Origin: Trichormus sp. ATA11-4-KO1
Lineage (GTDB): Bacteria > Cyanobacteriota > Cyanobacteriia > Cyanobacteriales > Nostocaceae
Length of the DNA stretch: 42,450 bases
Reading direction: 5' to 3'
Assembly: GCA_019358915.1 (NCBI GenBank)
Contig: JAHHIM010000039.1
Span: forward strand, 1-42,450
Part shown: piece by piece, positions 1-42,450 of the stretch
Numbering within the stretch: position 1 is the first letter of the stretch
Layout of the letters: every line of letters begins with the position of its first letter
Position numbers and translations under genes: made by a program
The notes under the pieces: generated by a model
What the model saw: the letters and a program-made list of their open reading frames with translations, nothing else
What the model was told of the DNA's origin: nothing
The model's database searches: none

Positions 1-123
1 TTGCAAATAATAATGAGTCTGTTTGCAATTAATGTGAGCCAACAATTTTCTTGTTTGCAATTAATGTGAGCCAACAATTTTCTTGTTTGCAAGCCGGAGC
101 GTTTATGTTTGCGAGCCGCAACA
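1..123. mobile_element. End of a TGT...ACA transposable element (terminal inverted repeat with internal repeats); interior lies outside the window or the element is a ~245-bp MITE spanning the junction
   Basis: 1-123 is a near-perfect inverted copy of 42329-42450. It ends in ...GCCGCAACA followed by CATATA (124-129), which is also found at 42323-42328. It contains tandem TGTTTGCAATTAATGTGAGCC repeats. Confidence 0.85.
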
Positions 124-506
124 CATATAGATGTTTCTGATTTCTCAGTGCTAGTATCATCTTCGATAGTTTGCAACTGAGTTACATCATTTACGTTGCT
201 GTCTACTGTTGCTAATCCTTCACCAGTGGGCGCTGTTTCTGGTTCTTCTGATTGGGGGATTGATGCGATTGCCTCTGGTTCTTCTTCAGTGGTAGTAGTG
301 GTGTCGATTTCCAGTTCTTCACTAATAACGTTTAACTTAGTGGCGTTATTCATAAAGTGTTCAAAAATAGCTGATATCTCCTCATCTGTTGGCTTATTTA
401 TGTCTTTAACCAATTCTTTGTAAATTGGTCTAATTTCACCCAATGACACCTTTAATCCTTGTCTAGATAGTTTTGATTGAATGCGTTTAGCAATTGTAGT
501 AACCAT
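124..506 (-). pseudogene. 5' part of an acidic/coiled-coil hypothetical gene interrupted by the transposable element
   Basis: ATG at 506 with GGAG upstream. The frame MVTTIAKRIQSKLSRQG...TEKSETSIC runs into the element and joins 42322-41851 in frame when the element and one CATATA are removed (855 nt, 284 aa). Confidence 0.8.
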
Positions 507-522
507 GTGTTTTTCTCCAAAT

Positions 523-987
523 TTAGCTGACTTTAGCGAGTGAGTTGTTTTGTTTTTTCGACTTGTAAATTAGTGCAAGCGCACAAATAGGAATAAGAAC
601 TGTTTTGTTGTAGAAAGCTTTACTCTTGTAGCCTCCACATCTTTTAAACCATCTGGATATCGTTGATTGATTTGGATGAATGTTTAGCTGCTCCAGAAGT
701 TTTATAAACTGTTCTCCAGTTATGCCTTCACCAATACTTGGTTCTAGTTGTTTCGAGATTTGGACTTTTACTTTGTGGTATTGGCTAAAGTACCTGGGAG
801 ATGTTTTCTTTAGTGCAATAAACAGTTCAAATCCTGACTTGGTTAGTGGTAATTCACAGGTAATCATTGACTTTCTGACTCTCCACCAGTGAGAATCACA
901 GACTCTCTCACCTATCAATGTTTCGTAAATTACGCGCTCCTGGTTTTCCATAGTTTTTATGCAATATGCACAAGTTGAATTTTGCAT
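523..987 (-). CDS. Hypothetical protein with a probable C-terminal helix-turn-helix
   Basis: 154-aa ORF co-oriented with the downstream operon. ...LLEQLNIHPNQSTISRWFKR resembles an HTH. Confidence 0.6.
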   Translation of the reverse strand: MQNSTCAYCIKTMENQERVIYETLIGERVCDSHWWRVRKSMITCELPLTKSGFELFIALKKTSPRYFSQYHKVKVQISKQLEPSIGEGITGEQFIKLLEQLNIHPNQSTISRWFKRCGGYKSKAFYNKTVLIPICALALIYKSKKQNNSLAKVS

Positions 988-998
988 CTATGCAGTAT

Positions 999-1042
999 AT
1001 GAATTACGCATCTCGCGTATATGAATTGCACATCTCGCGTAT
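999..1042. repeat. Two tandem 22-bp direct repeats (possible operator)
   Basis: ATGAATTACGCATCTCGCGTAT / ATGAATTGCACATCTCGCGTAT, with a degenerate copy near 975-996. Confidence 0.6.
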
Positions 1043-1118: not shown

Positions 1119-1340
1119 TTAAAGGTGTTTACGACTTCCATTGCTTGCTGTTAGGTTGTTGTGGTTATGCGGACGAATTGCATAACTCTCTGCTGGCACA
1201 CTGCTATCAGCTTGAAAAATTAACTTCTCTACTGCTGCGGATAATGCTTGGGTTGGCACGTCTTGAGGCAGTCCAAACATTTTGCACAATTCTTCCACTG
1301 CTAAGTAGGAAATGGTGATGCGCCGAGAGTCATATTTCAT
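1119..1340 (-). CDS. Small hypothetical protein, possibly a regulator heading the minus-strand operon
   Basis: 73-aa ATG ORF with a purine-rich sequence upstream, divergent from the RHH gene. Confidence 0.45.
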   Translation of the reverse strand: MKYDSRRITISYLAVEELCKMFGLPQDVPTQALSAAVEKLIFQADSSVPAESYAIRPHNHNNLTASNGSRKHL

Positions 1341-1661
1341 GGGTTTACATTCCTACACAAATTTTTGTTACAGATTTAAGCAGCTTGATTGAGCCAATTT
1401 TTTGCATTGGCGAATGCTACTTTCATGTTTCTGTTTTTTCAAAGTCTTCAATTATGGCTATTTAACGCAATTTTTAGTCAAATAACGTTAAATATAAATA
1501 TCCAGGTAATGGTTAGCCCTAGCAGCACTTTCTGGCTTCTATTGCCTTTGTTTTGTGGCTGTTTTTGGCTTGATAGTGCTATTATAACACTGTATAACAC
1601 CAGTGACAAGGGAGAAGTTTAGACTGAAAATGGGGTTATTCAAACACCAGACAGTGTTACG

Positions 1662-1847
1662 ATGCCCACAGGAAAAAGGTTAAACATTTATTTCACTGAT
1701 GAGGATGACTTAGCAATTTACGACTTGGTATATTCTGAAGCAAAAGCTGAAAAACGCTCTATGAGTCAAATGGTGAAAATTCTTGCTTCTGAAGCAATCG
1801 CGGCCAGACACAAAAAAACCAAATTTCACAAGCAGGATGAAGTGTAG
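1662..1847 (+). CDS. Ribbon-helix-helix (CopG/Arc-like) regulator
   Basis: 61 aa with KRLNIYF beta-strand and AKAEKRSMSQMVKIL helices; upstream of rep. Confidence 0.75.
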   Translation: MPTGKRLNIYFTDEDDLAIYDLVYSEAKAEKRSMSQMVKILASEAIAARHKKTKFHKQDEV

Positions 1848-2383: not shown

Positions 2384-5300
2384 GTGATAAATAGCAACCG
2401 TGCCTTGGCAGAAAGTCAAGACCAATCGCCGAAGTTTAAATTTGCTGTCAACACTTTTGGCAGAAACAAAGACTGGGACTTTAAAAAACTAGCTGCCAAC
2501 TTCCAAGATACAGAAGGGACGCTCGCGGATGTCCAGCAGCACATTAAAGCAGGTCACGCCATCTGTGCTGGCTTATTGGGTGGTAAATGGCGCAGTAAAG
2601 CCCATATCATCGGTTCTCACTGGCTATTACTCGACATCGATAATTCTGATGTTGCCCGTGATGCAGAGGGCAAGCCAATCAAAGACGAGAACGGGAATTA
2701 CATCAAAATTTATGATCCCCAACTAACCATTGAAGAAGCCCTAGCCCATCCCTTCATCCGAAAACACTGTGCTTTGATGTACACCACTGCCAGTCACAAA
2801 CCAGACTGGCATAAATTCCGGCTAATTTTCCCTTTACCCCAATACGTCGAGGGTGCTGACACTGTAGAAGCTTGTACACGCTTCCTGATGCAGCAGTTAC
2901 CCCATGATCCCGCCTGTAAAGATGCCAGCCGGGTTTTCTACGGCAACACCGAAGCCGAATTTTTCATAGTCAACCCCCAAGCCACATTACCAGTCGAGTG
3001 GGTAACTCAAGCGATCGCGATCGCTCACCAAGAAAAAATCGAATATGAGCAACGCATAGCCGAAATTACCTCCCGGCGTATCCAGTTCCAAGAACAGGCT
3101 ATTGCCCAAAACTGGGACGTAGACCAACTAATTCAACAAGCACTCAGCTATATCCCCCCACGCAGCTTCGGCTCTGGGAATTACCAAGAATGCTTACAAG
3201 TCTTAATGGCACTATACAGCCATTACGGGGCTGTAGATGCAGAAATTCTTGGGGAACAGTGGTCGCCCTCCATCAAAGGCACCACCTGGAACATTAGAGC
3301 GAAAATCAGAAGCTTTGAACGCTCTCGACGTGCGGGGATCACGATTGGGACACTGTTTCACATCGCCAAGCAGTATGGCTTCCGCTTTCCCCAACGGCAG
3401 TACGAACCATCTCAACGCGACAAAGGGCTGATTAGCCGTGAGCAGTGGGAGCTTGGACAAGTCCGAGAAGATTTGACCAGTTTCCAAAACTTATTAAAAC
3501 AGGCATTCGCTCCTTTTGTTAAAGCTGCCAAAGGATTCTCAACCCCCACATCAGGAGAGCCAGCACCCACATCACCGCAACCAAAACCCGTTTCTACCAC
3601 CCCAAGACGGCAGGTAATCATCTACAAGCGGGGCAATATCCCCCACAGAAGCGAAATTACAGGCAATATGTATATTGAGTGCCAACCAGAGGAACACATC
3701 GCCGCATGGGTAGAAGCCATTTCCAAGGGCTGGACACAAATTCTAGATAATTCCCACCCCGGACTGGGCAAATCCCACAACGCCGGACAACTGACAGCTG
3801 CCATCTTCGGGATTGATAAATTAATTTACCAGGATGCCAACCACAGAAACCCCTCTACACTACCCATCGAGGCTAACTTTGTTGACCTCCCCGTGCGGCA
3901 CAATGGTTTAAAAATTGACACTAGCCGTACTACCCCAATGGGCGAAAACTTTCTCCTGCGTCCCAGACCAGGTGAAACTCCTGATACTGATGGCAATTGT
4001 CACCGCAGTTACTTATTTGAAGGATTTCGGGAGAAAAACTTTCAATCTTTAGATTTTGAAGAAAGTTCCATTAGCCCCATCTGTGACGGTTGCTCACTGA
4101 AAAATCAATGTCGTTTCGCCTCTGGCCCTGGTTTTGGCTTCCGCAACCAAAAACGCACAGTCATTCAAAATTACTCCGAAATCAGAGCGCATCCCGACTC
4201 TACCCCCGTTACCTTAACCAACGTGGCTGGTCAACCTTTCACCGTAGGGCGGATTTGGGAAGAAGCAGGGACTCTCATCAAGCCTGTGCGTTCACTGGAA
4301 TTGCGGTTGAGCGATTTTGATACCACTGTCGCCAAATTAGCTACAAGCGGCTTACCGAGTGAACAATGGTCAAAACTCCAGCCCATTTTACAGGTTTTGC
4401 GATCGCTTCTGGCTCAACAAATTAAGCCCCCTTCTCGTTACGGCTTCAATGATCATGACATCCGGGCGGTACTGCCGGATTTCCCAGAAGATTTAGACAT
4501 AGAAGCAATTCAGCAGATTTTAGAACCTGATTTAGATTTTCTCGCTGATTTGGACTCCATTGATATCCAGGCTGACAAACAACTCAAAAAAAGCGCCGCC
4601 GCCCGTTATGCTGCCAAGCAATTAACTAAAGACAGCGCCCTTCATGCTGGTAGGGAATTTCTGGAATTACCTTTGTACTGGCTCACCGATTTCCTGGAAG
4701 CTTGGAAAGGTAACGGTTCTTTGGCTTGTAAGTGGGGTGTAGTGACCATTTATCGTCCTCACACCAAATATACTGAATTAGCCAACTCTGCCCAATTTAA
4801 TATTTACCTTGATGCCACTACCACCGCCCAGCAGTTGAAATTGAAACTTAACTATCATGACCCCGTGTTAGTCATCCAGCAGTCACGCCCTGACTACAGC
4901 AATTTAAAGGTGGTTAATGTGACTGGACTGGGTAAATTGTCTAAAAATCGCTCTAGTTCCTTAACTGACCGTGTTAATGCCCTCAAAGAAACTTTGCGTC
5001 AAATCCACAAGCATCTCGGCATCATCGAGTGGAAAAAAATTGCATCTCAGGCTGAAGACCGCATTGAATACGGTCACTTTGTCGATGGTCGCGGTGTTAA
5101 CAGGTTCAGTGATGCCGATGCTCTAGCCAGCTTTGGCATTCCCTACCAAAACATCGGCTCGTTAGCAGCACATTTTCAGGTGATGACTGGTCAACCCGTC
5201 AACCTTGAAGACCCAGAAAGCACCTTCCAAAAGTATCTGATTGAATTGCTCCAAGCCGAAATCATTCAAGAAATTGGTCGATTACGCGCTCATCGTCGCC

Positions 5301-5920
5301 CCAACGTGGAGCTAACATTCTACTTCTGTGCTGATTATGACCTGAGTTTTCTTTTAGATGAACTCCCTGGCGTGAAATTAGAGGTTGTCGATGCCTGCGA
5401 TTTCTGCACCGAAGCGGGTAACCGCGAACAGCAGACTGGACACGCCATCGTCAACGCTTTCACCCAACTTTGGCAGTCGCAGCAGAAAATTGGGCAAACG
5501 GCAATCGCCAAAATCATCGGCATTAGCCAGGAATGGGTGAGCAAATTTACCCAACGCTGGGGGGGTTGGTTTAAGTTTAGAAAAATATTACTTTTACTAT
5601 TAGACAGTCTTTATAGCGATAGTCATAAAAATTTCACAGACTTGAGCGACGAGGAAAAGTGGTTCGCCCGTGAATACTTCCCCCACCTGGTTACTGAGTC
5701 GGAATCATCACCAGAAGATGCCTTAGAACACATAGCTGAAGTGGCTACAAGTGTTACTAATACTGCGATGCGGCGAATTTTCCACTACTGCACCCCTCAA
5801 GTTAGGGCTAACTTGCTGATGATTATCTTGCGTTGCTTACCCACTGAGGTTTACTCAGACCAATCCATTTTTAGCGTTGTTGCCCCGGTGCAAGCTGTAA
5901 CTAACCCGACAGTGACCTGA
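2384..5920 (+). CDS. Plasmid replication protein: AEP-type primase + PriCT-2-like domain + helicase-like region + C-terminal HTH
   Basis: 1178 aa. Primase motifs LDID, YTTASH..HKFRLIF, DPACKD. P-loop HPGLGKS, a Cys cluster, QEIGRLR (SF2 motif VI-like) and HTH QTAIAKIIGISQEWVSK. Confidence 0.8.
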   Translation: MINSNRALAESQDQSPKFKFAVNTFGRNKDWDFKKLAANFQDTEGTLADVQQHIKAGHAICAGLLGGKWRSKAHIIGSHWLLLDIDNSDVARDAEGKPIKDENGNYIKIYDPQLTIEEALAHPFIRKHCALMYTTASHKPDWHKFRLIFPLPQYVEGADTVEACTRFLMQQLPHDPACKDASRVFYGNTEAEFFIVNPQATLPVEWVTQAIAIAHQEKIEYEQRIAEITSRRIQFQEQAIAQNWDVDQLIQQALSYIPPRSFGSGNYQECLQVLMALYSHYGAVDAEILGEQWSPSIKGTTWNIRAKIRSFERSRRAGITIGTLFHIAKQYGFRFPQRQYEPSQRDKGLISREQWELGQVREDLTSFQNLLKQAFAPFVKAAKGFSTPTSGEPAPTSPQPKPVSTTPRRQVIIYKRGNIPHRSEITGNMYIECQPEEHIAAWVEAISKGWTQILDNSHPGLGKSHNAGQLTAAIFGIDKLIYQDANHRNPSTLPIEANFVDLPVRHNGLKIDTSRTTPMGENFLLRPRPGETPDTDGNCHRSYLFEGFREKNFQSLDFEESSISPICDGCSLKNQCRFASGPGFGFRNQKRTVIQNYSEIRAHPDSTPVTLTNVAGQPFTVGRIWEEAGTLIKPVRSLELRLSDFDTTVAKLATSGLPSEQWSKLQPILQVLRSLLAQQIKPPSRYGFNDHDIRAVLPDFPEDLDIEAIQQILEPDLDFLADLDSIDIQADKQLKKSAAARYAAKQLTKDSALHAGREFLELPLYWLTDFLEAWKGNGSLACKWGVVTIYRPHTKYTELANSAQFNIYLDATTTAQQLKLKLNYHDPVLVIQQSRPDYSNLKVVNVTGLGKLSKNRSSSLTDRVNALKETLRQIHKHLGIIEWKKIASQAEDRIEYGHFVDGRGVNRFSDADALASFGIPYQNIGSLAAHFQVMTGQPVNLEDPESTFQKYLIELLQAEIIQEIGRLRAHRRPNVELTFYFCADYDLSFLLDELPGVKLEVVDACDFCTEAGNREQQTGHAIVNAFTQLWQSQQKIGQTAIAKIIGISQEWVSKFTQRWGGWFKFRKILLLLLDSLYSDSHKNFTDLSDEEKWFAREYFPHLVTESESSPEDALEHIAEVATSVTNTAMRRIFHYCTPQVRANLLMIILRCLPTEVYSDQSIFSVVAPVQAVTNPTVT

Positions 5921-6075: not shown

Positions 6076-6870
6076 TTACATAGAATTGTCCTCAACTCTG
6101 GTTTTTGCGCCTGACAGTCCCAAAAAAGAGCCACCTTTCATCATCTCTAACTCTTGTTTTGGTATCCACGTAGATAACCTACTTTTATTAGCTATACCTA
6201 TTTTGTTGATATCGTAATTTACTGCTTCGGTAAAACTGGCATCAAGTTCGTCAATTTTGTCGTAGACCCATTCAAACAAACGGCGAAAATTTAACTCAAT
6301 CGCTCCCAACTCCAGAACAGATTGTCTAGTTTTAGATTCGTTGTACTTGCTGAAAGCTTTTTCATCTTCTTCATCTTCACTCCAATACAAATTTCTCACC
6401 ACCACATAATCAACTTGATTACCGCAAAATTCCATTAACCGTTTGAGTTGAATAATGCTTTCTTTCCCCCGACCTAGTACCGATACCATAGTGATGCGAT
6501 AGCCGAGGTCTGCATCTGTTATATCTTGAACAAAATCCCGAAAATATTCCCCCACTCCCGACGGCAGATCCATTAAAGCCACAACAGGAGCTAACGTTGA
6601 CAAATCATTTTGTAAAACATCTCTGACACCCCGTTGATTAAATTTAATTGTTTTTACCCCCCCTGGCACAACTCTGTTATAGTGCCTCCACAATTGGGGA
6701 TTATGAGGGTCGCAATCATACGCCAAAACATCAATATCGTTAGCCAAGTACATATTCAAAAGAAACCTAGCTACAATACTTTTACCTACACCTCCCTTAT
6801 CCCCAGTACACAGCACTATTCTTTGATTGAGTCCTGCTTTCCCTGAACTTCGACGGCTTGTTTTACTCAT
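6076..6870 (-). CDS. ParA/MinD-family P-loop ATPase next to oriT (TraL/MobD/StbB-like)
   Basis: Deviant Walker A GDKGGVGKS, AYDCD, MDLPSG; operon divergent from mobC/relaxase. Confidence 0.75.
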   Translation of the reverse strand: MSKTSRRSSGKAGLNQRIVLCTGDKGGVGKSIVARFLLNMYLANDIDVLAYDCDPHNPQLWRHYNRVVPGGVKTIKFNQRGVRDVLQNDLSTLAPVVALMDLPSGVGEYFRDFVQDITDADLGYRITMVSVLGRGKESIIQLKRLMEFCGNQVDYVVVRNLYWSEDEEDEKAFSKYNESKTRQSVLELGAIELNFRRLFEWVYDKIDELDASFTEAVNYDINKIGIANKSRLSTWIPKQELEMMKGGSFLGLSGAKTRVEDNSM

Positions 6871-6882
6871 AATTCAACCAGT

Positions 6883-7383
6883 TTATAAATCTTCATCCTT
6901 GTAAACTTTTGGTTGAAAGGCATAGTCATTGAACTCCCTCTGTAAATCTGATTCACCCTCTTGCTGCTGTGCTACTGGCTGTTGACTTTTTCTCTTGCCC
7001 TTGGCACTACTTACAGTTGATTTTTCAGCCTCACTGCTGGTTTTAACTGCTGGTTGAGTTTCACTAGTTTGCTCTGATGACTGATTATTCTCTTGCTCCT
7101 CAGATTTCTTTCGCTGACGGCTACTTTTTCTCAACTCACCGATTAAATATTTAATCCGACTACCACTCAAATTAATCCCCAGACCCTTCAACATTTCTGA
7201 AACTTCATCGTAAGTGTAGCCGTACTTGTCAGAAGTCAGCTTTTCAATATACCGCCTCATCTTGCGAACAGCTTCCCTGTCTGATACATCCTCTCGTTCT
7301 TTTGGCTTTTGTTCCTTCAGCAGATTGATAGCCTGATCAATCTTCTCCTTCGTAATTACCTCTGGATTCTTCTGCTCACCCAT
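6883..7383 (-). CDS. Basic DNA-binding protein (HTH-like), candidate oriT-region binding accessory protein
   Basis: 166 aa. GYTYDEVSEMLKGLGINLSGSRIKYL HTH-like segment plus a low-complexity tail; first gene downstream of the repeat array. Confidence 0.65.
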   Translation of the reverse strand: MGEQKNPEVITKEKIDQAINLLKEQKPKEREDVSDREAVRKMRRYIEKLTSDKYGYTYDEVSEMLKGLGINLSGSRIKYLIGELRKSSRQRKKSEEQENNQSSEQTSETQPAVKTSSEAEKSTVSSAKGKRKSQQPVAQQQEGESDLQREFNDYAFQPKVYKDEDL

Positions 7384-7475
7384 TGTTATTTTATGAATAT
7401 TAATTAACTACTAATTATCAACTATTTGCAAAAATCTCCCCCAGCTTTTTTGAAAAAAGGTAATAAAAATTTGAC

Positions 7476-7960
7476 TATTGCGGCTACGCCGATTGATTGC
7501 ATTACTCATGAGGTGCTGTTCATCAATTCATGATTACAGCTACGCTGATTGTATGACTTACGAGTTGCTGGTTATAAATTCGCTATTGCGGCTATGCCGT
7601 TCTCCCCATTCAATATAAGCCTGAAAAAAGTTGCTATTGCGGCTACGCCGTGACCAAATTTTAGTGTGGCGGCTACGCCGTAACTTTCATTTAATCTAAA
7701 AAATTTTTACTACTGCGGCTACGCCGTAACCAGATTTTCATGTAGTGGCTACGCCATGATGATTATTTAGTCCTGCCCTTGATAACTTAGTTACTGCGGC
7801 TACGCCATTTCCCCTATTTAGTCCGAGCTAAATTTATCTAGCCCATTGTGCCTACGCCTAATCAAAAATTCCCCCAATGCTTGATTTATTGGTTATTACA
7901 GCTACGCCGTTGCTATTCCCCACCGTAGTTGATAGGATTATCAGCACCACGGCTACGCCG
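7476..7960. repeat. Array of 11 short palindromes (core GGCTACGCC) with mostly ~51-bp spacing
   Basis: Cores start at 7482, 7538, 7590, 7641, 7671, 7717, 7747, 7798, 7850, 7900 and 7951. Confidence 0.85.
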
Positions 7961-7970
7961 TATCCTGCCC
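7949..7970 (+). other. Candidate oriT nic site (MOBP-type YATCCTG^Y)
   Basis: ACGGC-TAC-GCCGT inverted repeat runs directly into TATCCTGCCC, matching the IncP-type nic consensus, ~170 bp upstream of mobC. Polarity relative to mobC is atypical. Confidence 0.4.
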
Positions 7971-8135
7971 CCAGTCTCTCACAGTGTCTCCGTACACACG
8001 TAGCCTCTGACACCTCCTCACTACCTAAATTGGGCTGGAAGCCAGCCATGCCTCAAAGCTGACGCTTTGCCTCGCTGCGCTCGGACAGCAGACTGGTTCA
8101 AGGGGGAGTTGCCCCCTTGAAAAACCCCCCTCGCA

Positions 8136-8570
8136 ATGTCCCCCAATATCCCGCTTATGGCTAATCGCAAGCAGTCAAAAAGACTCGTCAGAAACCACCT
8201 CTTTTCACTCAGACTGAGTGATATTGAATTGGATCTGCTGCGAATCAAATCACATGACGCGGGAATGTCAGCCAGTGAACTAATGAGGCGTAACGGATTA
8301 CTGCGACCACTACCAAAACGACTGAGTAAAATTAGCCTACAAACATATTGGGAACTAGGACAAATCGGCAATAACTTAAACCAACTCGTCAAAGCCACAA
8401 ACACAGCCATAAAAATGGGTAGCACTCCACCAGCCAACCCACAACTATTACAAGAACTTTTAAAAGTATTGCATCAGTGTAGACGAGACATTGCCCAAGC
8501 TGATACGGAATCTGAAGACTGGTCAGAAGAGGAAGAAGAAAGCGATGATTGGGAAGCAGACGAAGGGTAG
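8136..8570 (+). CDS. mobC: Relaxosome accessory protein MobC (RHH)
   Basis: SLRLSDIE...AGMSASELMR and the MobC signature ELGQIGNNLNQL; overlaps the relaxase start. Confidence 0.9.
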   Translation: MSPNIPLMANRKQSKRLVRNHLFSLRLSDIELDLLRIKSHDAGMSASELMRRNGLLRPLPKRLSKISLQTYWELGQIGNNLNQLVKATNTAIKMGSTPPANPQLLQELLKVLHQCRRDIAQADTESEDWSEEEEESDDWEADEG

Positions 8571-10083
8571 AGGTTTTCGCAGTCTGTTAGCTTATTTAGA
8601 ATCAAGCTCAGACGCTAAACTAATTGGCGGTAACATGAGTGGCAGAAATGCCAGAGAATTAACCAAAGAATTTCGCCTATCTCGACAACTAAATCCAGAT
8701 GCCGAACGTGTTGTTTACCATGTCTCCCTATCAGCAGCCAAGGGCGATAAATTAGATGATGAAAAGTGGAGTGAAATAGGCTCACGCTACATGAAAGAAA
8801 TGGGCTTTGATGCCAATCAATTTGTCATCTTCCGCCACCACAACACCGATGATGACCACATCCACATTGCCGCCAGTAGAATCAGGATGGACACAGGTAA
8901 ACTTGTCCATGATTCCTGGGATTATGTACGCTCTGAAAAAGTCCTGCGACAAATCGAAATTGATTATGATTTAGTCCAAGTCCAGGGCAGTAAAGAGAAA
9001 CTAACTCGCACACCCAGCACCGGACAAATTAGACGCATTAGACGAGAACAAGAAGAGTTTGAACAGGGACAACGTGACTCTCCTCCACAACGCACCATCA
9101 AGGAGGAAATTCAATTTTTAATTAACTATGCGTCTTTTGACCATCCCCAAATGCCTGATTTTATCATGATTTTACAGTCAGCAGGCATTAATGTAAGGAC
9201 AGGATTTACCAGAAATGGTAAGTCTAAAGGAATTTCTTATGAAAAAGATGGACAAGCATTTAGTGGCACACAATTAGGTGCAGCTTATACCTTCCCTGGA
9301 CTGCAAAAACATAAAGGCATTGATTATCAACCACAACGCGACGACCAACGCATTCAGCAACTACTGTTAAATCCAGTTAAATCTTTACCTATTGACCCAC
9401 CACAGCCAGCCCTTGAAATTGAACAGCCAGAAACTAAACCTCAGTTTACGCCCCCAATAGAAGATGAAAGCCTATGGTCTACATTAAAAAATTACCTGAC
9501 TGAAAAACGTGGCATCTCACCTGTATTTGTGGAAGCATTACATCTTGAGGGGTTGACTTATGTAGACCAGCAGCGAGCTGTTGTGTTTATCAAACATGAT
9601 TTAGATGGTGAAAAGTCAGGCGCACTGATATGGCATACCCGTAGCCAAGATAATCTCACTGTTGAGTATGAAAAAACCACCAAACCCTCACCGGGTTGGT
9701 TTCATATTAGTTTGAGTAGAGAACCAGAGGAAGAAATCAAGAGAGTATTCTTGTGTGATACCCCCATTGATGCCCTGTCAGTAGCAGAGATGGACATGAT
9801 ATCACATAAAGGTTTGCCACCAGTGAGAACAATGTATATGGTGGTGGATGATCCAAATAACTTGCCAGTAGAATTTTTCAAAAATGTCAGCAGAATTGGT
9901 TTGGCTTTTAATAACAATGCTCAGGGTCATGAAACCGCCCAAGTTGTTCAGAAAATGCTGCCTGTGGCTGAAAGAATTGCACCTGAAGGACTGACGTGGA
10001 ATCAGATGATTTTGGAACGGCGACGGCTGAAGCAGTTGGAATTGCAACGGCAAAGACAGCAAGAGAATGAACTTAGTTTGTGA
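8545..10083 (+). CDS. MOBP-family relaxase fused to a DUF3991/Toprim-like C-terminal region
   Basis: MIGKQTKGRGF..LLAYL, YHVSLS, HHNTDDDHIHI 3H motif; C-terminal YLTEKRGIS and FLCDTPIDALS. ATG 8545 preferred over TTG 8491. Confidence 0.9.
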   Translation: MIGKQTKGRGFRSLLAYLESSSDAKLIGGNMSGRNARELTKEFRLSRQLNPDAERVVYHVSLSAAKGDKLDDEKWSEIGSRYMKEMGFDANQFVIFRHHNTDDDHIHIAASRIRMDTGKLVHDSWDYVRSEKVLRQIEIDYDLVQVQGSKEKLTRTPSTGQIRRIRREQEEFEQGQRDSPPQRTIKEEIQFLINYASFDHPQMPDFIMILQSAGINVRTGFTRNGKSKGISYEKDGQAFSGTQLGAAYTFPGLQKHKGIDYQPQRDDQRIQQLLLNPVKSLPIDPPQPALEIEQPETKPQFTPPIEDESLWSTLKNYLTEKRGISPVFVEALHLEGLTYVDQQRAVVFIKHDLDGEKSGALIWHTRSQDNLTVEYEKTTKPSPGWFHISLSREPEEEIKRVFLCDTPIDALSVAEMDMISHKGLPPVRTMYMVVDDPNNLPVEFFKNVSRIGLAFNNNAQGHETAQVVQKMLPVAERIAPEGLTWNQMILERRRLKQLELQRQRQQENELSL

Positions 10084-11886: not shown

Positions 11887-11888
11887 GG

Positions 11889-13625: not shown

Positions 13626-13814
13626 TTTTTGTAAGTAATGTCAGTTCGGGTTAAGGACTCAAATTTGATCACTTGGACGAAATAATAAGGTTTTCACACT
13701 ATCAAAACTAACGACAGAATCAAGGTTTTAGGTTTTCCAAAGAAGACTGTCAAAAAAATAACAGTCTTTATTAATAATTAAGAAATAAATGACAATTATG
13801 AATGCAACATTACT

Positions 13815-18561: not shown

Positions 18562-19764
18562 TTACTCATCACCCAGTAATGCTTCTAGCTTGTTTAAAAG
18601 GTTTACTAGCTGCTTTTGTTTGCGAGGTTCTTTCCATAGCTGACGCTTTTTAATGCGTTGGGTGATAACCTTGAGCCGTTCTGGTATTTGGTTAGGTGTT
18701 TTAGATGAGGGAGATGGTTCATCAGGAGTGTTGGCGATGATTTGTTCTTTGATTTGGCTTAAAGACCAATCCGACGCTATTGCCCTTGACAATAGTTCTT
18801 GTCGCAGTTCTTCATCTTTTACTCGTGCCAATGCTTGGGCTTTGGTGTATTCCAGTTTGCCTTCCCGCAGTGCCATTAAAATTTCTGACGGCAGATTGAG
18901 CAACGGTAAACGCTTGGTGGTGAACGATAGCCAATTCATTAGCCCCAAGCTCTCAAATACCTGTTGTACCGTTTGAAATTGCTCCAACTCCACTTTAGGA
19001 GAAACGTTTCTCCTAGATTTTTTTTCATCATCTCCTTTAGCAGAAATGTTGCTCCCAGAGTCCATCTCCTCATCCGATTTAGAAGAAACATTTTCTCCAG
19101 ATTCCGCCTCCAAATCTCTTTTAGGAGAAACGTGGTTCCTAGATTCTGTTGACTCGTCTAAATCCTCAGAAATGTTATCCCCAGTTTCCGTTTCTTCTGA
19201 GTTAGGAGAAACGTTTCTCCTAGATTCATTTAATGAGTCTTTTGACTGCTGTTCTTCTTTGCTGTGAGTGTTCTTCATCCGGTACAGCAGGGATTTGACC
19301 GATTCCACATCACAATGTAGCCGGATGGACAACAGGTGCAAAATCCCTTCTGTTTCTTCAACTGGGTTCAGGTCTTCTCGTTGCAGGTTCTCAATTAAAG
19401 CCAACTGAAACGCTTGGTCATCTGATAGCTCACGCACGACCACAGGCGCGACTTCAAGTTTTGCTTCTTGCCCTGCCCTTAAACGTCTTTCTCCTGCTAC
19501 TAATTCGTATTTTCCTCCACCTAGTGGACGCACCAACAAAGGTTGGAGGATGCCATGCTGTTTAACTGACTCAACTAATTCCTTTAATGCTTGTGGGTCA
19601 AAGTATCGCCTGGGTTGCTGCTCTGGCAGATGAATATCTTTGAGTTTGATAGTAGTTTCAGTAGCACCTGCTGTATTGACATCGGGTGAGTCTAACCAAG
19701 GGGCTGGGGGTGGAGTGGTAATTTGACCCCCAAAGGGTTTATCAGTTTGCTTGCGTCTAATCAC
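18562..19764 (-). CDS. parB: ParB/Spo0J partition protein with a low-complexity repeat insertion
   Basis: QPRRYFD, GILQPLLVR, VAGERRLRA (CTP-binding box), ENLQREDL. Confidence 0.93.
   Translation of the reverse strand: MIRRKQTDKPFGGQITTPPPAPWLDSPDVNTAGATETTIKLKDIHLPEQQPRRYFDPQALKELVESVKQHGILQPLLVRPLGGGKYELVAGERRLRAGQEAKLEVAPVVVRELSDDQAFQLALIENLQREDLNPVEETEGILHLLSIRLHCDVESVKSLLYRMKNTHSKEEQQSKDSLNESRRNVSPNSEETETGDNISEDLDESTESRNHVSPKRDLEAESGENVSSKSDEEMDSGSNISAKGDDEKKSRRNVSPKVELEQFQTVQQVFESLGLMNWLSFTTKRLPLLNLPSEILMALREGKLEYTKAQALARVKDEELRQELLSRAIASDWSLSQIKEQIIANTPDEPSPSSKTPNQIPERLKVITQRIKKRQLWKEPRKQKQLVNLLNKLEALLGDE
18996..19222. repeat. Six 20-bp palindromes at 42-bp period inside parB; candidate parS centromere
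   Basis: Perfect TAGGAGAAACGTTTCTCCTA at 18996 and 19203; degenerate copies at 19038, 19080, 19122 and 19164. Confidence 0.8.
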
Positions 19765-20531
19765 AAAGCCTCCAAAGCCAAGGCGATTTCTTCAAGGATA
19801 GCGACGGCAGAATGTTTGGGGTCAAACACTGCCAGGGGCGCACGTTCTTCTGTGGCATCGACAAAAGCCGTGGCTCTGGGAATAGGTGGAAATATCCTAC
19901 CCCAAGCTAAAAGTTGTTCATTAATAGCTGCTAATGCGCGTTTATCGGCTGAGTTTTGTTGAGCATACCGCGTGGGAATAAACCCGGCTATTTGAATTTT
20001 GCGGTTGGCTTTATTTTTTACGTGGGTGATAGTTTGTAAGAGTTCGTCTGTTCCCTCAAAGGCTTTGAGATGGGTTTCAATGGGGACGAGGACGTGTGTA
20101 GCAGCAACTAGGGAGACATAAGAAAGTAATCCTAAGCTGGGGGGACAATCTATAAGGATGAAATCGTATTCCCCTAAAACTGGTTCTATGGCTTCCTTGA
20201 GGCGCAAGTCACGCATGGCAGCGCTGACTAACTGCATTTCGGCTCCACTCAGGACTCGGCTTGCTGGAACCAAGTCCATACCGTGAATGCCTTCATGGAT
20301 TGGTAAGGGTTGCTCATCGATAATGGCATCGGCAATGGTTTTTTGTAACTGAGATGGCACTAACCCCATGAATTTGGTTAAGGATGCTTGGGGGTCGATG
20401 TCGATGAGAAGAACGCGGTGTTCTCGTTGTGCGAGGTGGTATCCCAAGTTCTGGGTCAGTGTTGATTTGGCGACACCACCCGCCTGATTAAACAGGGCAA
20501 TAATGCGGCATGGTTGGTCAGAAGTTGACAC
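19761..20531 (-). CDS. parA: ParA/Soj partition ATPase
   Basis: NQAGGVAKST, LIDIDPQ, LIDCPPSLG; 4-bp overlap with parB. Confidence 0.93.
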   Translation of the reverse strand: MSTSDQPCRIIALFNQAGGVAKSTLTQNLGYHLAQREHRVLLIDIDPQASLTKFMGLVPSQLQKTIADAIIDEQPLPIHEGIHGMDLVPASRVLSGAEMQLVSAAMRDLRLKEAIEPVLGEYDFILIDCPPSLGLLSYVSLVAATHVLVPIETHLKAFEGTDELLQTITHVKNKANRKIQIAGFIPTRYAQQNSADKRALAAINEQLLAWGRIFPPIPRATAFVDATEERAPLAVFDPKHSAVAILEEIALALEAL

Positions 20532-22369: not shown

Positions 22370-22379
22370 GGAGATGAAT

Positions 22380-23077: not shown

Positions 23078-23080
23078 GTT

Positions 23081-24313: not shown

Positions 24314-24326
24314 CCTATAAAATCTT

Positions 24327-24566
24327 TCACTTTCCATAGAACATAGCGTTAATCTCCTCTGACTCATCATCAAAATCATCAGCAATCCAAACGCGCCCTT
24401 CCCAAGCCCCTGGAGTACGCGGCTCAAGTTCCGCCTCATAGCGTACCAAACGCACCAACGGTTTACCCTCTCGACTAATGACCACATCTTTACCCTCTAA
24501 CACTGACTCTATTAATTCCAGAAGATATGCCTTTGCCTCTTGAACCGTTGCATTCTTCATAGACAA
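24327..24566 (-). CDS. Orphan Phd/YefM-family antitoxin
   Basis: TVQEAKAYLLELIE..G.DVVISREGKPLVRL; no adjacent cognate toxin. Confidence 0.85.
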   Translation of the reverse strand: MSMKNATVQEAKAYLLELIESVLEGKDVVISREGKPLVRLVRYEAELEPRTPGAWEGRVWIADDFDDESEEINAMFYGK

Positions 24567-24637
24567 AAAAATTTTATCGATTAAAATCTAATTATCAAAT
24601 AAAAATTCATGTATCATTTCATACTCCTTTAATCTAA

Positions 24638-33797: not shown

Positions 33798-33813
33798 ATT
33801 TTAAGGATTTGTT

Positions 33814-34584
33814 GTGGGTTGGAAAGCAGTTGTGCATTCTGCTATAGGAACGAGTCATCAAAAGCAGGAAATACCTTGCCAAGATAGGGGAGATTATCGC
33901 ATCTTTAATGATGTGATTGTGGGTGCTGTTGCTGATGGTGCTGGCAGTGCTAAATATTCTGATGTTGGTGCGAAATTAGCGGTAGACACCATACTCAAGT
34001 GCTTTGCTGACATTAACGAATCTCTAGAGCAACGCATTTCGCAACCACTTTCTCAAGAAGAAATTAAGAAACTGTTTGAGAAGATTGTAAAAATAGTTAT
34101 TACAAATTTGCATGATCAAGCAAACAGCCAAGGTTATTCAGTTGATGAATTAGCTTGTACACTCTTAGTTTTTGTAGCGACACCTGACTGGCTTGCAGCT
34201 ATGCAAATTGGGGATGGATTTATTGTGGTGCGTCTTCAAGACTTAGATTATCAACTGTTGTTTCAACCAGATAAAGGTGAGTTTGCTAATGAAACAACTT
34301 TTATTACTTCAAACAATGCACTAGAGGAAATGAAAGTAGACATTATTTCAGGAGCGCAAGAATTTATTTCTGCTTCAACTGATGGATTGGAAAAAGTAGC
34401 AATTCGCATGAGTGATTGGCAACCGTTTCCGCCATTCTTTCAACCGTTTGAAGAATACTTACAGGAAACAGCTCATCCAGAGCAAGAAAATGAGTATCTA
34501 ATGAGTTTTCTTAACTCTGAACGACTAAATGCTCGTACGGATGATGATAAAACTTTACTTTTATGCCTTTTTAATAAAGACTAA
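33814..34584 (+). CDS. PP2C-family phosphatase (TerY-P triad)
   Basis: GTSH..PCQD, VADGAGSA, IGDG, TDG, TDDDKT. Confidence 0.9.
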   Translation: MGWKAVVHSAIGTSHQKQEIPCQDRGDYRIFNDVIVGAVADGAGSAKYSDVGAKLAVDTILKCFADINESLEQRISQPLSQEEIKKLFEKIVKIVITNLHDQANSQGYSVDELACTLLVFVATPDWLAAMQIGDGFIVVRLQDLDYQLLFQPDKGEFANETTFITSNNALEEMKVDIISGAQEFISASTDGLEKVAIRMSDWQPFPPFFQPFEEYLQETAHPEQENEYLMSFLNSERLNARTDDDKTLLLCLFNKD

Positions 34585-34590
34585 AATCCA

Positions 34591-38191: not shown

Positions 38192-39616
38192 TTATTCTTC
38201 AAAATTAATTGGTTTACCGTTGAAGTGCTGGTAAATGCGTTCAGGGTGCATCCAGTTTGGTAGTGTCCTTTCCTCGTCTTCTAAGTTATTCCCGTTCTCA
38301 TCAACTAGCCCATAACGGACAACGACCCTAGATAATGGCGTTTCCCCATTGGCGCTAAACTTCTCCAGTAAAATTGTCCCTGCCTTCCGTGAGGCGGCTG
38401 TACCGTCTGGGAAGCTTTCATTTGTGGCATTGTGGGTGATTCCTAGCAAATACTCCTTGGCTTTGCGGGTGTCAGTGAGGGACATTTTGAAGAAAGCGAT
38501 CGCACTCTCCCCGCACAATGATTTTAAATTGGTAAATTCATCCACAATTACCTGCTGCTTTTTGGTGGGTTTTTCCTTAATCCGAGTTAACCACCGTTCA
38601 CAACAATCTTCAAAAGCTGTGCTGATTTCATCCTCTGATTCTGCTTTGCTGGTGGCTTCTAGTAATTGCCATACATCGGCGTTGTCACCTGTGGCGTGAC
38701 GGTCGATTAATTGATGAATTGGGGCATCAAGGCAGTATTTTCTAATGAGGGCGATCGCTGTGGCTGTATAAGTCTTACCTGACCCTTGATTACCAATCAA
38801 CCACAATGGTTTGAGTGAATTGATAATTTTCCACAGATAACCATCCTCATGATTTTTCAGGGCATCTATGAGGGCATCTTTCAGCTGTTCGCTGGGGGAT
38901 TGGGTACTGGCCTTGTGGTCATCCTGGGGAGTGCTAGACAATTTGCTCAACTTCTTGTTAGTTTCAGCAACTTGTAGCTTATTGTCAGCAATAACCTTGT
39001 CCATCTCCGACAACTGCAACTCATGATTTTTGAGTGATAATTTACCCTGTAGTTGACCATTGATGTGGTCTAATTGCATCTCACCTGGGGATTTCATAGC
39101 CTCGATTGTTTCAGCAGTTTGACGGGCGATCGCTTGCTTGGTGATCTCAGATTGCTGTTGTTTACTAAACTGGGTTAGGTCAATGTGATTGCTAACAATA
39201 ATGTCGTTCTCCAATGCTTTGATTTTGAGCAATGCGAACTGACTATGAATTGCTTTCTCTTGTTTATCAGTGAGTGATTTACTGGTAGCATAAGCAACGA
39301 GCAACGCCACACTTCCACCAATCCCAAATAAGTAAGCGGTGCTATCTTCTGGTGGTAAAACTCGTAAGATTTTAATGCTGTTATCAAATAATTGATTACG
39401 GCGCTCATTATCAATAATGTGAGCAATTCCCCGCCGCACACTTGACCCTCTACAGTCAGAATTGACCCTACAGAATAAGACCTCACTATGCTTAATTGAA
39501 TCGGTAAATAATGGCACAGTTGCAGCTAGTCCACCAATTAACAATGCACCTACTAACAAAGTAGATGCTTTACGCTCACGCCTGAGATTTTCGTTAAATT
39601 CTTCTATCTCTTGCAT
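38192..39616 (-). CDS. Membrane-anchored coiled-coil P-loop ATPase (FtsK/HerA/coupling-protein-like)
   Basis: Two N-terminal hydrophobic helices, coiled coil, LWLIGNQGSGKT Walker A, VIVDEF Walker B, LLGITH. ATG 39616 preferred. Confidence 0.7.
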   Translation of the reverse strand: MQEIEEFNENLRRERKASTLLVGALLIGGLAATVPLFTDSIKHSEVLFCRVNSDCRGSSVRRGIAHIIDNERRNQLFDNSIKILRVLPPEDSTAYLFGIGGSVALLVAYATSKSLTDKQEKAIHSQFALLKIKALENDIIVSNHIDLTQFSKQQQSEITKQAIARQTAETIEAMKSPGEMQLDHINGQLQGKLSLKNHELQLSEMDKVIADNKLQVAETNKKLSKLSSTPQDDHKASTQSPSEQLKDALIDALKNHEDGYLWKIINSLKPLWLIGNQGSGKTYTATAIALIRKYCLDAPIHQLIDRHATGDNADVWQLLEATSKAESEDEISTAFEDCCERWLTRIKEKPTKKQQVIVDEFTNLKSLCGESAIAFFKMSLTDTRKAKEYLLGITHNATNESFPDGTAASRKAGTILLEKFSANGETPLSRVVVRYGLVDENGNNLEDEERTLPNWMHPERIYQHFNGKPINFEE

Positions 39617-39861
39617 TGTGCTTTTACCCAAAACAATAGATAAATGCCAGCAATTAAGTACAACCAATATCCTTGGATGAATAATCTGATTTTTGTAATT
39701 AAACTGTCTACTGTGCCGAGAGTATCAGGAGTAATTAACCAATTCACCAGTGCATCAATGTTAAAAACAAAATCTATAAACCCAGTGGCTAAATAGTTGA
39801 GCGTGACAATCGTAGCTAAGGAGCTAATTAAGATTCTCCAAATACTATTTATCCTGTACAT
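39604..39861 (-). CDS. Small two-TM membrane protein
   Basis: 85 aa, hydrophobic; overlaps both neighbours. Confidence 0.65.
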   Translation of the reverse strand: MYRINSIWRILISSLATIVTLNYLATGFIDFVFNIDALVNWLITPDTLGTVDSLITKIRLFIQGYWLYLIAGIYLLFWVKAQCKR

Positions 39862-40417
39862 TTGGATTACCCAGAGATTTTAAATAAATAACTACTGCCA
39901 TGAAAATTAGAGCAATCAATAGTGAGATGTTCATGCTGGGTAACTGCCAAGTTAATCCATTGTTAGCTCTAATTTCTTTGTAAGTTTCAGCAATTGCGTC
40001 ATGGGTAAGTATTACTTCTTTAGTAATTCTGCTAGTCCCTGAAAATGACACTGCACCACCAATTAATAATTTGGCAATTCCTATTAATGGCTTATCTCCA
40101 AAGCGTATTCGCCAGTTTTCACTAGATGCTTCAAAATTGAAACCATCTCCTATATGGATTAGTCCAGGTATTAAGGCTATGCAAGAACTAAATACCTGAA
40201 TAATCACTAATGTTACTCTCAATTCAAATAGTAGCCATGACAGGCTACACGACCCTACCTGACAAGTTAGAAAGAGTATACTACTATCAATTCTTTTTCT
40301 CGCTGTAATATCTTCATACAATCGATTTTCGATGTGTTGTAAGTACCTCAAAGTATCTTCGTTGGCGGAAGATTCTTGATTGTCTAGTAATTCTTCTAAC
40401 TGGTCATTAGGGTACAT
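39845..40417 (-). CDS. Multi-TM hypothetical membrane protein
   Basis: 190 aa with ~4 hydrophobic segments; in operon. Confidence 0.7.
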   Translation of the reverse strand: MYPNDQLEELLDNQESSANEDTLRYLQHIENRLYEDITARKRIDSSILFLTCQVGSCSLSWLLFELRVTLVIIQVFSSCIALIPGLIHIGDGFNFEASSENWRIRFGDKPLIGIAKLLIGGAVSFSGTSRITKEVILTHDAIAETYKEIRANNGLTWQLPSMNISLLIALIFMAVVIYLKSLGNPNVQDK

Positions 40418-40430
40418 GGGTTAAATTTGG

Positions 40431-40511
40431 GGAATGGAGAATGTAGATTGCAGATTGGAGATTGGGATTAAAAGCATTCAATCTACAATCTTCTTTCTGC
40501 AATCTGCAATC
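40431..40511. repeat. STRR-like heptamer repeats in inverted arrangement
   Basis: AGATTGC/AGATTGG runs followed by CAATCTA/CAATCTG runs. Confidence 0.6.
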
Positions 40512-40529
40512 GTTTTGGGGGGAGTGTTT

Positions 40530-41219
40530 TTAGAAGCCTAAAGCTGTACGCAATTGTAGTATTCTGGCTTTTAATCCTGGTGTCTGGTAATTTTTCTCAG
40601 GGATGAGGTCATAACGAGCGCGATCGCCTTTATTTAATCCCTCGTTTAATTCCCTCATTTCATGCGCTTCATCGGCTGCAATCTGTTTTATTTCTGGTCT
40701 ATGGGATTGTTCAAGTAATGAGGTTTGTTGGTCTATACCTGCTAAGTGAGCATCAAGATAACCTTTGATTTGGGTGTAGTTCATCTGGTATTGATGACGT
40801 TGGTTTTCACCCGTTTTAGATGCGATAAATTCAGCCGCTAGTTCACTTCGTTGGTGTCCATATTTGGAGTTGGCTAAAGTGGCTTGCATAACGGATTTAT
40901 CGATGGCGATCGCTGACTTGCCAGCTTGAACTAAAATATCCGCAGTGGCTTTGTTGTATGCTTCTGAACCGTTGATAATCTCGATGTAAGCTTGTGCAAG
41001 TTTGGGAGCTAATTCGGCTGATAATCGTCCTTGTCTTGCTAGTTCTCCAATTTTTTGAGCAGCTGCTACATCTCCATTCAATGCTGCATCAAAATCAGCC
41101 AAATTTACACCAAATTTAGGCTTTAAAACATTGCTAATTCTTCTGGCTTTGGGTGCAACATGGTTTTTTAATGTCGCTCTGGTGGTGGCAGTGGTTGTGT
41201 CAGTTATTTTCTTAGTCAT
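40530..41219 (-). CDS. Alanine-rich helical/coiled-coil hypothetical protein
   Basis: 229-aa ORF in operon. Confidence 0.75.
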   Translation of the reverse strand: MTKKITDTTTATTRATLKNHVAPKARRISNVLKPKFGVNLADFDAALNGDVAAAQKIGELARQGRLSAELAPKLAQAYIEIINGSEAYNKATADILVQAGKSAIAIDKSVMQATLANSKYGHQRSELAAEFIASKTGENQRHQYQMNYTQIKGYLDAHLAGIDQQTSLLEQSHRPEIKQIAADEAHEMRELNEGLNKGDRARYDLIPEKNYQTPGLKARILQLRTALGF

Positions 41220-41248
41220 AGGTTTGTTAGGTAGTTGTGGATATGTGC

Positions 41249-41458
41249 TTAACTGGTGAATCCTTCTAGGGCAAAAATATTCAGAGGTTCACCATGTTGA
41301 TTTAACAACTCTGACCGCAATTCGATTAATGCTTGCTGTGCATCCCCCAAAGTTACGTCTGGTTGATAATTCAAGGTTTTAAACTGGGGATGATTCCTGA
41401 TTTCTTGAATTGTTTCAAGAGACTGATTGACTAATTCTTGTATTGTTCTTGTTGCCAT
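41249..41458 (-). CDS. Small hypothetical protein
   Basis: 69 aa with GAGGTG RBS; overlaps the upstream ORF. Confidence 0.7.
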   Translation of the reverse strand: MATRTIQELVNQSLETIQEIRNHPQFKTLNYQPDVTLGDAQQALIELRSELLNQHGEPLNIFALEGFTS

Positions 41459-41676
41459 GATTGCACCTCATTTTTGAAATGATTTAAGCTGCCAAAGTTT
41501 TTGATAATTCCTCGCTCTATTTCGTCGTTGGATAGGGTTTCGATATCATCCAAACACTGGATATCTTCAAAATGCCCGATACACTCTATGAGCCATTCCC
41601 TTGCAGCTTTTAACACCTCGGCTTCGCTCGGTGTTAAAGCTGAGCGAAGTCGAAGCTTTAAGGTTTCTTCATCCAT
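41431..41676 (-). CDS. Small hypothetical protein
   Basis: 81 aa; overlapping operon arrangement. Confidence 0.6.
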   Translation of the reverse strand: MDEETLKLRLRSALTPSEAEVLKAAREWLIECIGHFEDIQCLDDIETLSNDEIERGIIKNFGSLNHFKNEVQSWQQEQYKN

Positions 41677-41879
41677 GCGGGAATCTCTAGATAAATATTA
41701 GAGTCGTGAAATTCTCGATACTCTAGCTGGTGGACTCGATGCCTGTTTAGTCGGTAATTATCAAAGGCTACAAGAGCCAGTACTAAAGATGAAATCAACA
41801 AAATGGTGTAACCTAATTTCTGAGGATTAACGGCAATTACAAAGTCTTTATCAGCCTGTTTTACTAGGTGGGAGTGCAA
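41658..41879 (-). CDS. Small single-TM protein
   Basis: 73 aa with LGYTILLISSLVLALVAF; overlaps both neighbours. Confidence 0.55.
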   Translation of the reverse strand: MHSHLVKQADKDFVIAVNPQKLGYTILLISSLVLALVAFDNYRLNRHRVHQLEYREFHDSNIYLEIPAWMKKP

Positions 41880-42328
41880 AGGCTTTGAGTGCTGTTCTGA
41901 CGCTACTTTTAAACTTCTGGGAACCTCTTTTGATGTCGTTGTTTATCTCCCGTAATCCATCATTCAATAGCTGGGAGTTTTCATTATCCAATCGCGTTAC
42001 AGTCTCCCTAACACCTTGCACCATGTTGGTTATCTTTTGCTTAGTAACCTGCGCTTTATGTTGTACAAATGCTGTAATTGCTGACTCGATTTCTGCTATC
42101 TCATAATCAGAATTAACACTTGCATAATCAAAGTTTTCAGCAATCGCTGTGACTTCCTCAATTGATAAAGTAATCCCCATATCATTTGCAGTGCTGGCGA
42201 CTAATTCTGATTTCTCTTGTAGTGCAATGGCTGTTTCTTCTGGTTCCTCATTATTGAATTGGGTTAATGTTTCCGCTTCCTTCTGTGTAGATGTTGCGTT
42301 TTTTCCGGTTTCATCAACTACACATATA
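41851..42328 (-). pseudogene. 3' part of the coiled-coil gene interrupted by the transposable element
   Basis: ICVVDETGKN...ALPPSKTG continues the 506-124 frame after removal of the element. Confidence 0.8.
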
Positions 42329-42450
42329 TGTTGCGGCTCGCAAACATAAACGCTCCGGCTTGCAAACAAGAAAATTGTTGGCTCACATTAATTGCAAACA
42401 GAAAAAGACTTCGGCTCACATTAATTGCAAACAGACTCATTATTATTTAC
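42329..42450. mobile_element. Other end of the TGT...ACA transposable element
   Basis: Starts TGTTGCGGCTCGCAAACA immediately after CATATA; inverted copy of 1-123; repeated GGCTCACATTAATTGCAAACA. Confidence 0.85.

Follow-up and report, generated by a model that had tools for sequence, protein, structure and literature searches.

What is the role of a plasmid-borne operon that runs from a putative DNA-binding protein through coiled-coil and small membrane proteins to an FtsK/TcpA-fold ATPase? In the present study, we addressed this question in Trichormus sp. ATA11-4-KO1, in which the operon lies on contig JAHHIM010000039.1. This stretch of 42,450 nucleotides, hereafter the window, is a complete contig (C39) of the 5.97-Mb assembly, and its nearest named relatives were Nostoc plasmids. 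The operon contains a block of five core genes, which has a conserved gene order, an FtsK-type motor fold and a membrane anchor and is independent of relaxase and replicon type. By analogy with the TraB/Spd system of Streptomyces, we propose, with a probability of about 0.55, that the block is a relaxase-independent pump for double-stranded DNA (dsDNA), which would spread the plasmid between cells and in which DNA recognition would have moved to separate proteins.

Genes of the operon

The operon consisted of the following features (TM, transmembrane; ORF, open reading frame):

1119..1340, minus strand: 73-aa protein, identical in TCL26-01 plasmid E, not core
523..951, minus strand: first core gene, about 142 aa, putative DNA-binding protein; its three subfamilies can be aligned as one family
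126..506, minus strand: coiled-coil core gene, 5' part, matching residues 1-127 of the intact orthologue
41851..42321, minus strand: coiled-coil core gene, 3' part, matching residues 129-284 of the intact orthologue
41658..41879, minus strand: single-TM protein of about 73 aa; its family or a second single-TM family occurs in 29/52 loci
41431..41676, minus strand: 81-aa ORF of uncertain gene status, with no homologue in the loci compared
41249..41458, minus strand: 69-aa protein; its small family is often present in these operons
40530..41219, minus strand: H229, a 229-aa core protein with no TM segment, also present in a sister form of the operon
39845..40417, minus strand: 190-aa core membrane protein with 2-3 hydrophobic segments, in two divergent subfamilies
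39604..39861, minus strand: 85-aa protein with 1-2 hydrophobic segments, optional (26/52 loci)
38192..39616, minus strand: membrane-anchored FtsK/TcpA-fold ATPase, 474 aa, with no C-terminal tail

The ten minus-strand ORFs of the original prediction were all found in the order claimed. Their tight overlap held in part, but internal gaps of approximately 165 bp (952-1118) and 112 bp (40418-40529) were observed. The second gap, between H229 and the 190-aa gene, contains heptamer-like repeats forming a long hairpin, which are probably ordinary cyanobacterial short repeats. The claim of membrane proteins was confirmed, as the ATPase and the proteins of 73, 190 and 85 aa all have hydrophobic segments. 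These membrane proteins had no Pfam, NCBIfam or PHROG match, and no operon protein other than the ATPase had a PHROG match below E 0.005. The first core gene, which probably starts at 951 to give 142 aa, had been read as a helix-turn-helix (HTH) protein, an identity that received no support from Pfam or PDB. A TM segment was absent from H229 in 72 of 72 family members, and the protein was modelled as a single 122-residue helix with no informative fold match.

The ATPase has an FtsK-type motor fold

The start of the ATPase was placed at ATG 39616 (474 aa), in agreement with its homologues. The protein consists of TM1, a loop with two invariant Cys, TM2, a long helical stalk and the motor domain. 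Both predicted motifs were verified, namely Walker A GNQGSGKT (38771-38794) and Walker B VIVDE (38537-38551), and R384 and H395 were also noted. TM1 was detected in 41/41 window-type ATPases and TM2 in 34/41. All 41 stop at most 35 residues past W455, which indicated that the C-terminal DNA-recognition domain is absent.

The structure-based analysis revealed that the ATPase has the FtsK-type motor fold, with TcpA as the best structural match and packaging ATPases and Zot among the weaker ones. The FtsK-like assignment stood as an FtsK/TcpA-type fold, but it did not extend to a family profile of FtsK or VirD4 type. Pfam FtsK_SpoIIIE (PF01580), alpha or gamma matched neither the window ATPase nor any of the 86 homologues scanned from a list of 150 diverse ones. 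The T4SS-DNA_transf and TrwB_AAD_bind profiles did not match the window ATPase and gave one weak match, under the cut-off, among the 86 homologues, and a true VirD4-type protein did not match the profile of the ATPase family. FtsK/SpoIIIE proteins usually have Gln where the block ATPase has His. Unlike FtsK/SpoIIIE (PDB 2ius), the block ATPase lacks these Pfam matches and is plasmid-borne and dispensable. More distant ATPases, most of them long-tailed, were also seen in other families of the same order (loci L126-L131, L133, L135 and L137). Weak H229 matches together with other membrane partners were seen at some of these loci, and no array was found behind the ATPases.

The gene order is conserved across cyanobacterial plasmids

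Synteny, one of the checks proposed in the original prediction, was evaluated in the best 80 of 114 confirmed genome loci, which were retrieved with close-clade patterns, so the results describe that clade. The block was strictly syntenic across these loci: the first gene, the coiled-coil gene, H229 and the 190-aa gene were co-stranded in 52/52 loci with more than 4.2 kb upstream, and H229 and the 190-aa gene were present in 58/59 loci with more than 1.9 kb upstream. The small TM genes were optional (26/52 and 29/52 loci), and no nuclease or toxin gene was fixed in the block. The operon was directed away from a replicase of varying type (PriCT-2, VapE, DUF3987, Prim-Pol, DUF3854 or a DnaB-linked gene), and a small ribbon-helix-helix (RHH)- or HTH-type gene usually lay between the two.

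In 401 cyanobacterial genomes, the ATPase had matches in 30 and H229 in 22, including 19/45 and 17/45, respectively, within the family of the window. The same five genes were also found in Allocoleopsis, Cylindrospermopsis and two IMG/VR contigs. The carriers were plasmids of 18-190 kb with cargo, and the named ones all belong to genera that we take to be filamentous. The neighbouring replicase has a wider reach, including Synechocystis, Acaryochloris and Geminocystis.

The two IMG/VR contigs hold the whole block, one beside a tape-measure gene and the other beside DarB-like and terminase genes. Together with the weaker fold matches to packaging ATPases and Zot, they could point to a virus-like extrusion or packaging module of the pI/Zot or A32 type, which had been one option of the original prediction. 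We consider this extremely unlikely. Apart from the ATPase, the operon proteins had no PHROG match below E 0.005, and no capsid-like PHROG or fold match was obtained, although very small coat proteins would escape such searches. In addition, the carriers are cargo-bearing plasmids, and 50,697 GenBank phage records gave no match. The two viral contigs also bring tailed-phage genes with them, namely a tape-measure gene in one case and a terminase small subunit in the other. In one viral contig (L139 72-17563), which appears phage-plasmid-like, the operon is complete and has ParM-like, DarB-like and terminase genes as neighbours.

The block occurs on plasmids without a relaxase

As predicted, the window carries a relaxase, which was identified as MOBP-type by a profile scan of the window proteins, and no recognisable VirB/VirD4 genes, with zero VirB4/VirD4 matches among 35 window proteins scanned. 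To evaluate other carriers, we examined in full 8 of 45 plasmid records, among which small ones were chosen, so the counts are not a frequency. Five complete carriers had no relaxase, namely pANA03, NIES-4105 plasmid 5, pMIC7113.08, NIES-22 plasmid 7 and TCL26-01 plasmid G. The scan of these five covered 65 of the 85 ORFs of at least 125 codons (20 operon ORFs were left out) and detected 3/3 control relaxases. The other three plasmids had a relaxase, and the type among carriers varied (MOBP, MOBV).

TcpA works in a type IV system that also includes VirB4 and a relaxase, and the relaxase of pCW3 is of the tyrosine-recombinase type. The block ATPase might likewise be a coupling protein of the TcpA kind, acting in single-strand transfer that a MOBP or tyrosine-recombinase-type relaxase initiates. 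TcpA was the best structural match, many carriers have a relaxase, and a tyrosine recombinase family was found in 52 of the clustered loci. We nevertheless regard this explanation, and the atypical relaxase-coupling system of the original prediction, as very unlikely, because five complete plasmids carry the block without a relaxase. One of them, NIES-22 plasmid 7, also had no tyrosine recombinase among its ORFs of at least 125 codons. The relaxase type varies, neither VirB4 nor a relaxase is part of the block, and no linkage of the ATPase to a relaxase plus VirB4 was found. The block motor domain is smaller than that of TcpA from Clostridium perfringens pCW3 (approximately 230 aa vs 354 in the solved chain, PDB 6o1x). 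TCL26-01 plasmid E holds a separate true VirD4-type gene unrelated to the block ATPase family. In the window, the relaxase has its own TraL-like neighbour, and it has an ordinary helper, because the genome holds a VirD4-type gene on contig C43 and a marginal VirB4-type match on contig C57.

A sister form carries a motor tail, a repeat array and an actin-like gene

A search with H229 matched 51 plasmids and led to pCC7120delta, pNPUN04 and HK-01 plasmid 4, and then to pCC7120epsilon and pNPUN05. The H229 matches had E-values of 7e-64 (delta) and of 6e-5 and 1e-4 (epsilon and pNPUN05). In this sister form, an actin-like gene (Pfam ALP_N in two of three tested) and small genes stand where the first gene and the coiled-coil gene would be, followed by H229, a TM protein and a TM-stalk-ATPase.

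pCC7120delta, L140 17509-23250, and pCC7120epsilon, L144 4960-10240: sister operon with the actin-like gene first, an ATPase tail and a CAGACACC array

The sister ATPase has a tail of approximately 65 aa, which is winged-helix-like by eye and had no match to a known family. Within the 350 bp downstream of the stop codon, the four plasmids sharing one tail carried AGACAC 8-10 times (both strands), compared with about 0.1 expected; these tails are near-identical and hence not independent. In pNPUN04, which has a different tail and a divergent motor, six copies of ACGGCA were found in place of AGACAC. A shuffle test for arrays, which left out epsilon and pNPUN05, was passed by 2/13 tailed loci (delta and HK-01) and 2/82 tail-less loci. 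At L097, one of these two tail-less loci, the last 41 codons of a tailed gene and an array lie directly after the ATPase. This remnant of the sister form is most simply read as the trace of a replacement, in which one form took over the slot of the other. The actin-like gene was absent from the window form and its genome (tblastn). No 8-bp repeat array was found near the motor gene of the window; whole plasmids were not scanned for distant arrays. Two further observations concern front ends: pCC7120delta has an additional, separate ParM/StbA gene, and contig C56 of the same assembly as the window (L033 15928-18999) has a third front end before H229. The latter consists of 124-aa and 187-aa genes, whose proteins appear HTH-like and HTH-coiled-coil-like by eye and by profile are unrelated to the first two gene products of the window.

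These arrays also bear on whether the block moves DNA at all. The ATPase could instead export proteins in the manner of EccC or act as a HerA-like defence ATPase, and H229 and the coiled-coil protein would then be its helical substrates. We give this little credence, since the ATPase has a single motor domain, no nuclease or toxin gene is fixed in the block, the position at the replication region is fixed, and the tail-linked arrays of the sister form point to DNA recognition.

Comparison with Streptomyces TraB/Spd

TraB transfer uses a single FtsK-like motor, a clt locus with 8-bp repeats and translationally coupled spd genes, with SpdB2 copies on phages, and SpdA is speculated to link DNA to the apparatus, according to the available text of PMC4447253. 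Like this TraB/clt/Spd/TraR-KorA system (pSVH1, pIJ101; PMC4447253), the block has a membrane-anchored FtsK-type motor with no need of a relaxase, small, partly overlapping membrane genes under a divergent regulator, a filamentous host and copies on phages. The sister form adds an ATPase tail with an adjacent 8-bp repeat array. The analogy proposed in the original prediction was supported by the fold, the strict synteny, the five complete relaxase-free plasmids and the clt-like array of the sister form. The membrane genes are alike in layout, and the likeness to Spd is one of layout rather than of direct comparison with Spd sequences. In contrast to TraB, the host of the block is Gram-negative, no family-level sequence match was found, and the window form has neither the tail nor an adjacent array. 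No counterpart of H229, the coiled-coil protein, the first gene or the sister actin-like protein was detected in the Streptomyces system. In summary, the block appears to resemble TraB/Spd in its working, yet it is not a TraB member, because the tail and the adjacent clt are missing.

A multicopy transposon interrupts operon copies

The original prediction had continued the operon across a clean circular junction. This junction was not found: the contig ends are the inverted ends of a multicopy transposon, with no overlap.

42329..42450, plus strand: transposon end, with a TGT start and iterated repeats
1..123, minus strand: other transposon end
42323..42328 and 124-129, no strand: 6-bp target-site duplication CATATA flanking both transposon ends

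The same transposon end was found on ten contigs of 12-44 kb (C39, C32, C45, C51, C52, C56, C59, C61, C67 and C68), and this multicopy transposon with 6-bp duplications breaks the assembly at all ten. On C39, C45 and C51, both ends are present around a 6-bp duplication (CATATA, CATAGA and TATATA, respectively); the simplest view of each of these contigs is therefore a circular molecule that was opened at one transposon copy. In Nostoc ATCC 53789, a related element of 4.2 kb, encoding a DDE transposase, an AAA ATPase and a tyrosine recombinase, also has a 6-bp duplication, and the end of this element had 60-80% matches on 471 plasmid records, mostly enterobacterial.

Two insertions of the transposon lie inside operon copies, on C39 and C56. 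The insertion on C39 splits the coiled-coil gene. Nostoc TCL26-01 plasmid E has an intact 284-aa orthologue, to which the two parts correspond at 85-86%, over residues 1-127 and 129-284, respectively. The predicted length of 284 aa is therefore correct for the gene before the insertion, but the ORF is interrupted here, and the operon copy of the window is probably crippled. On C56, the transposon copy lies within the gene that follows H229, and the copies on C45 and C51 have matches to all five core genes. Short core ORFs occurred in 7/80 loci, some possibly through start-calling or assembly errors, and UHCC 0870 plasmid 5 has a split ATPase. Broken operon copies are not rare.

Upstream repeats and the question of partition

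The region upstream of the operon contains two sites of interest.

995..1038, no strand: 22-bp tandem duplication before the first core gene (22/24 matches, 0/100 shuffles), candidate binding site
1581..1609, minus strand: sigma-70-like promoter match (11/12, extended -10) oriented towards the operon; sites of this kind are no more numerous in the region than expected by chance

Periodic repeats before the first gene beat shuffles in 8/20, 18/28 and 2/11 regions of the three first-gene subfamilies (28/59 overall), with periods mainly of 22, 31-32 and 21 bp, compared with 2/54 and 5/66 control regions.

The block may alternatively aid segregation within one dividing cell: the repeat array, the DNA-binding protein and the coiled-coil or actin-like protein would form a partition system, and the pump would clear the plasmid through the septum as it closes or into cells undergoing differentiation, with no passage between finished cells. 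The upstream half resembles a centromere-adaptor-filament set. As in ParMRC-type partition, phased repeats precede a putative DNA-binding gene and an actin-like gene (ALP_N) heads the sister operon. The block always lies beside a replicase, and two carriers, pANA03 and pMIC7113.08, had no Par system found. Nevertheless, we judge this explanation unlikely. Unlike ParMRC, the block is fused into one operon with a membrane pump, and the window form has a coiled-coil protein and no actin. Most carriers examined also have ParA or ParAB, including 3/5 relaxase-free plasmids, two relaxase-bearing ones and the window. Moreover, plasmids persist with broken copies (the window, C56, UHCC 0870 plasmid 5 and 7/80 loci). 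The 21-kb plasmid pMIC7113.08 also had no recognised replicase, and its region L121 4053-12553 holds at least eight same-strand genes with no Pfam/PHROG match.

A proposed mechanism for the block as a DNA pump

In the relaxase-independent pump that we propose, the ATPase would form a ring in the cytoplasmic membrane, with the Cys-containing loop outside and the motor on a long stalk. The membrane passage would be built by the 190-aa and small TM proteins, and H229 may serve as a cytoplasmic scaffold. Since the ATPase has no DNA-reading tail, DNA delivery is assigned to the first-gene product and the coiled-coil protein: the former would bind the phased repeats before its own gene and, together with the latter, deliver the plasmid to the pump. 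In the sister form, delivery would depend on the ATPase tail, the 8-bp array and the actin-like protein.

No outer-membrane, pilus or wall-hydrolase genes were recognised in the core. The cells of a filament share a periplasm; therefore, such a pump would suit septum crossing better than the crossing of two full envelopes. The neighbouring cell, reached through the septum, would be the likeliest destination, and a plasmid or phage could in this way take the filament over from one entry cell. Septal junctions are known for small-molecule transfer. We tentatively suggest a widespread plasmid- and phage-borne machine that might pump dsDNA across the septa of filamentous cyanobacteria, with swappable DNA-loading front ends. 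In one, a tail on the motor would read an 8-bp array, with an actin-like protein as the pusher; in the other, a separate DNA-binding protein and a coiled-coil protein would together feed a motor that has no tail. The repeat counts include related, hence non-independent, loci, and the repeats themselves may be no more than an operator. The contrast between filamentous carriers and the hosts of the replicase is weakened by shared ancestry, a longer control query and filamentous genera without hits.

Other features of the plasmid

Besides the operon, the window has a PriCT-2 replicase, a MOBP-type relaxase with its TraL-like neighbour, ParA/ParB, a type I restriction system and cargo genes.

1662..1847, plus strand: ribbon-helix-helix gene (RHH_5), divergent from the operon, candidate repressor
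2384..5920, plus strand: PriCT-2 replication protein, divergent from the operon
6076-6870, minus strand: TraL-like gene, in a separate mobilisation region (6076..10083)
8491-10083, plus strand: MOBP-type relaxase, in the same mobilisation region
18562..20531, minus strand: ParA/ParB partition genes of the plasmid itself

An O-antigen ligase-like gene adjoins 578-aa and 368-aa genes with no family match (10564-14921). The type I restriction-modification operon (20786-27790) has a small gene and a PIN-domain gene between hsdM and hsdS. Tandem vWA, PP2C and kinase-WD40 genes lie at 33141-37290, in what we take to be the layout of a TerY-phosphorylation triad.

Implications for filamentous cyanobacteria

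In the available text of PMC12282955, MPF-C is the sole conjugation type named for cyanobacteria and is called functionally unstudied, and cyanobacterial conjugation is described as being without functional study. FtsK, alr85 and all85 were absent from the main text of bioRxiv 2025.06.27.661541. We found no publication on the block in the full-text literature, which was mostly non-subscription and came without the supplements, where plasmid gene tables could mention it. What is new here is the tail-less form, the suggested exchange between it and the tailed, actin-linked form, and the availability of Nostoc PCC 7120 as a test system. Because the sister form sits on two native plasmids of this genetic model, the question is directly testable there. 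If true, the proposed pump would mean that DNA travels along a Gram-negative filament and that a TraB-type pump can recognise its substrate in trans. It would provide a tool for obtaining uniform filaments after gene transfer, and it would account for the takeover of a multicellular host by an element that had entered a single cell.

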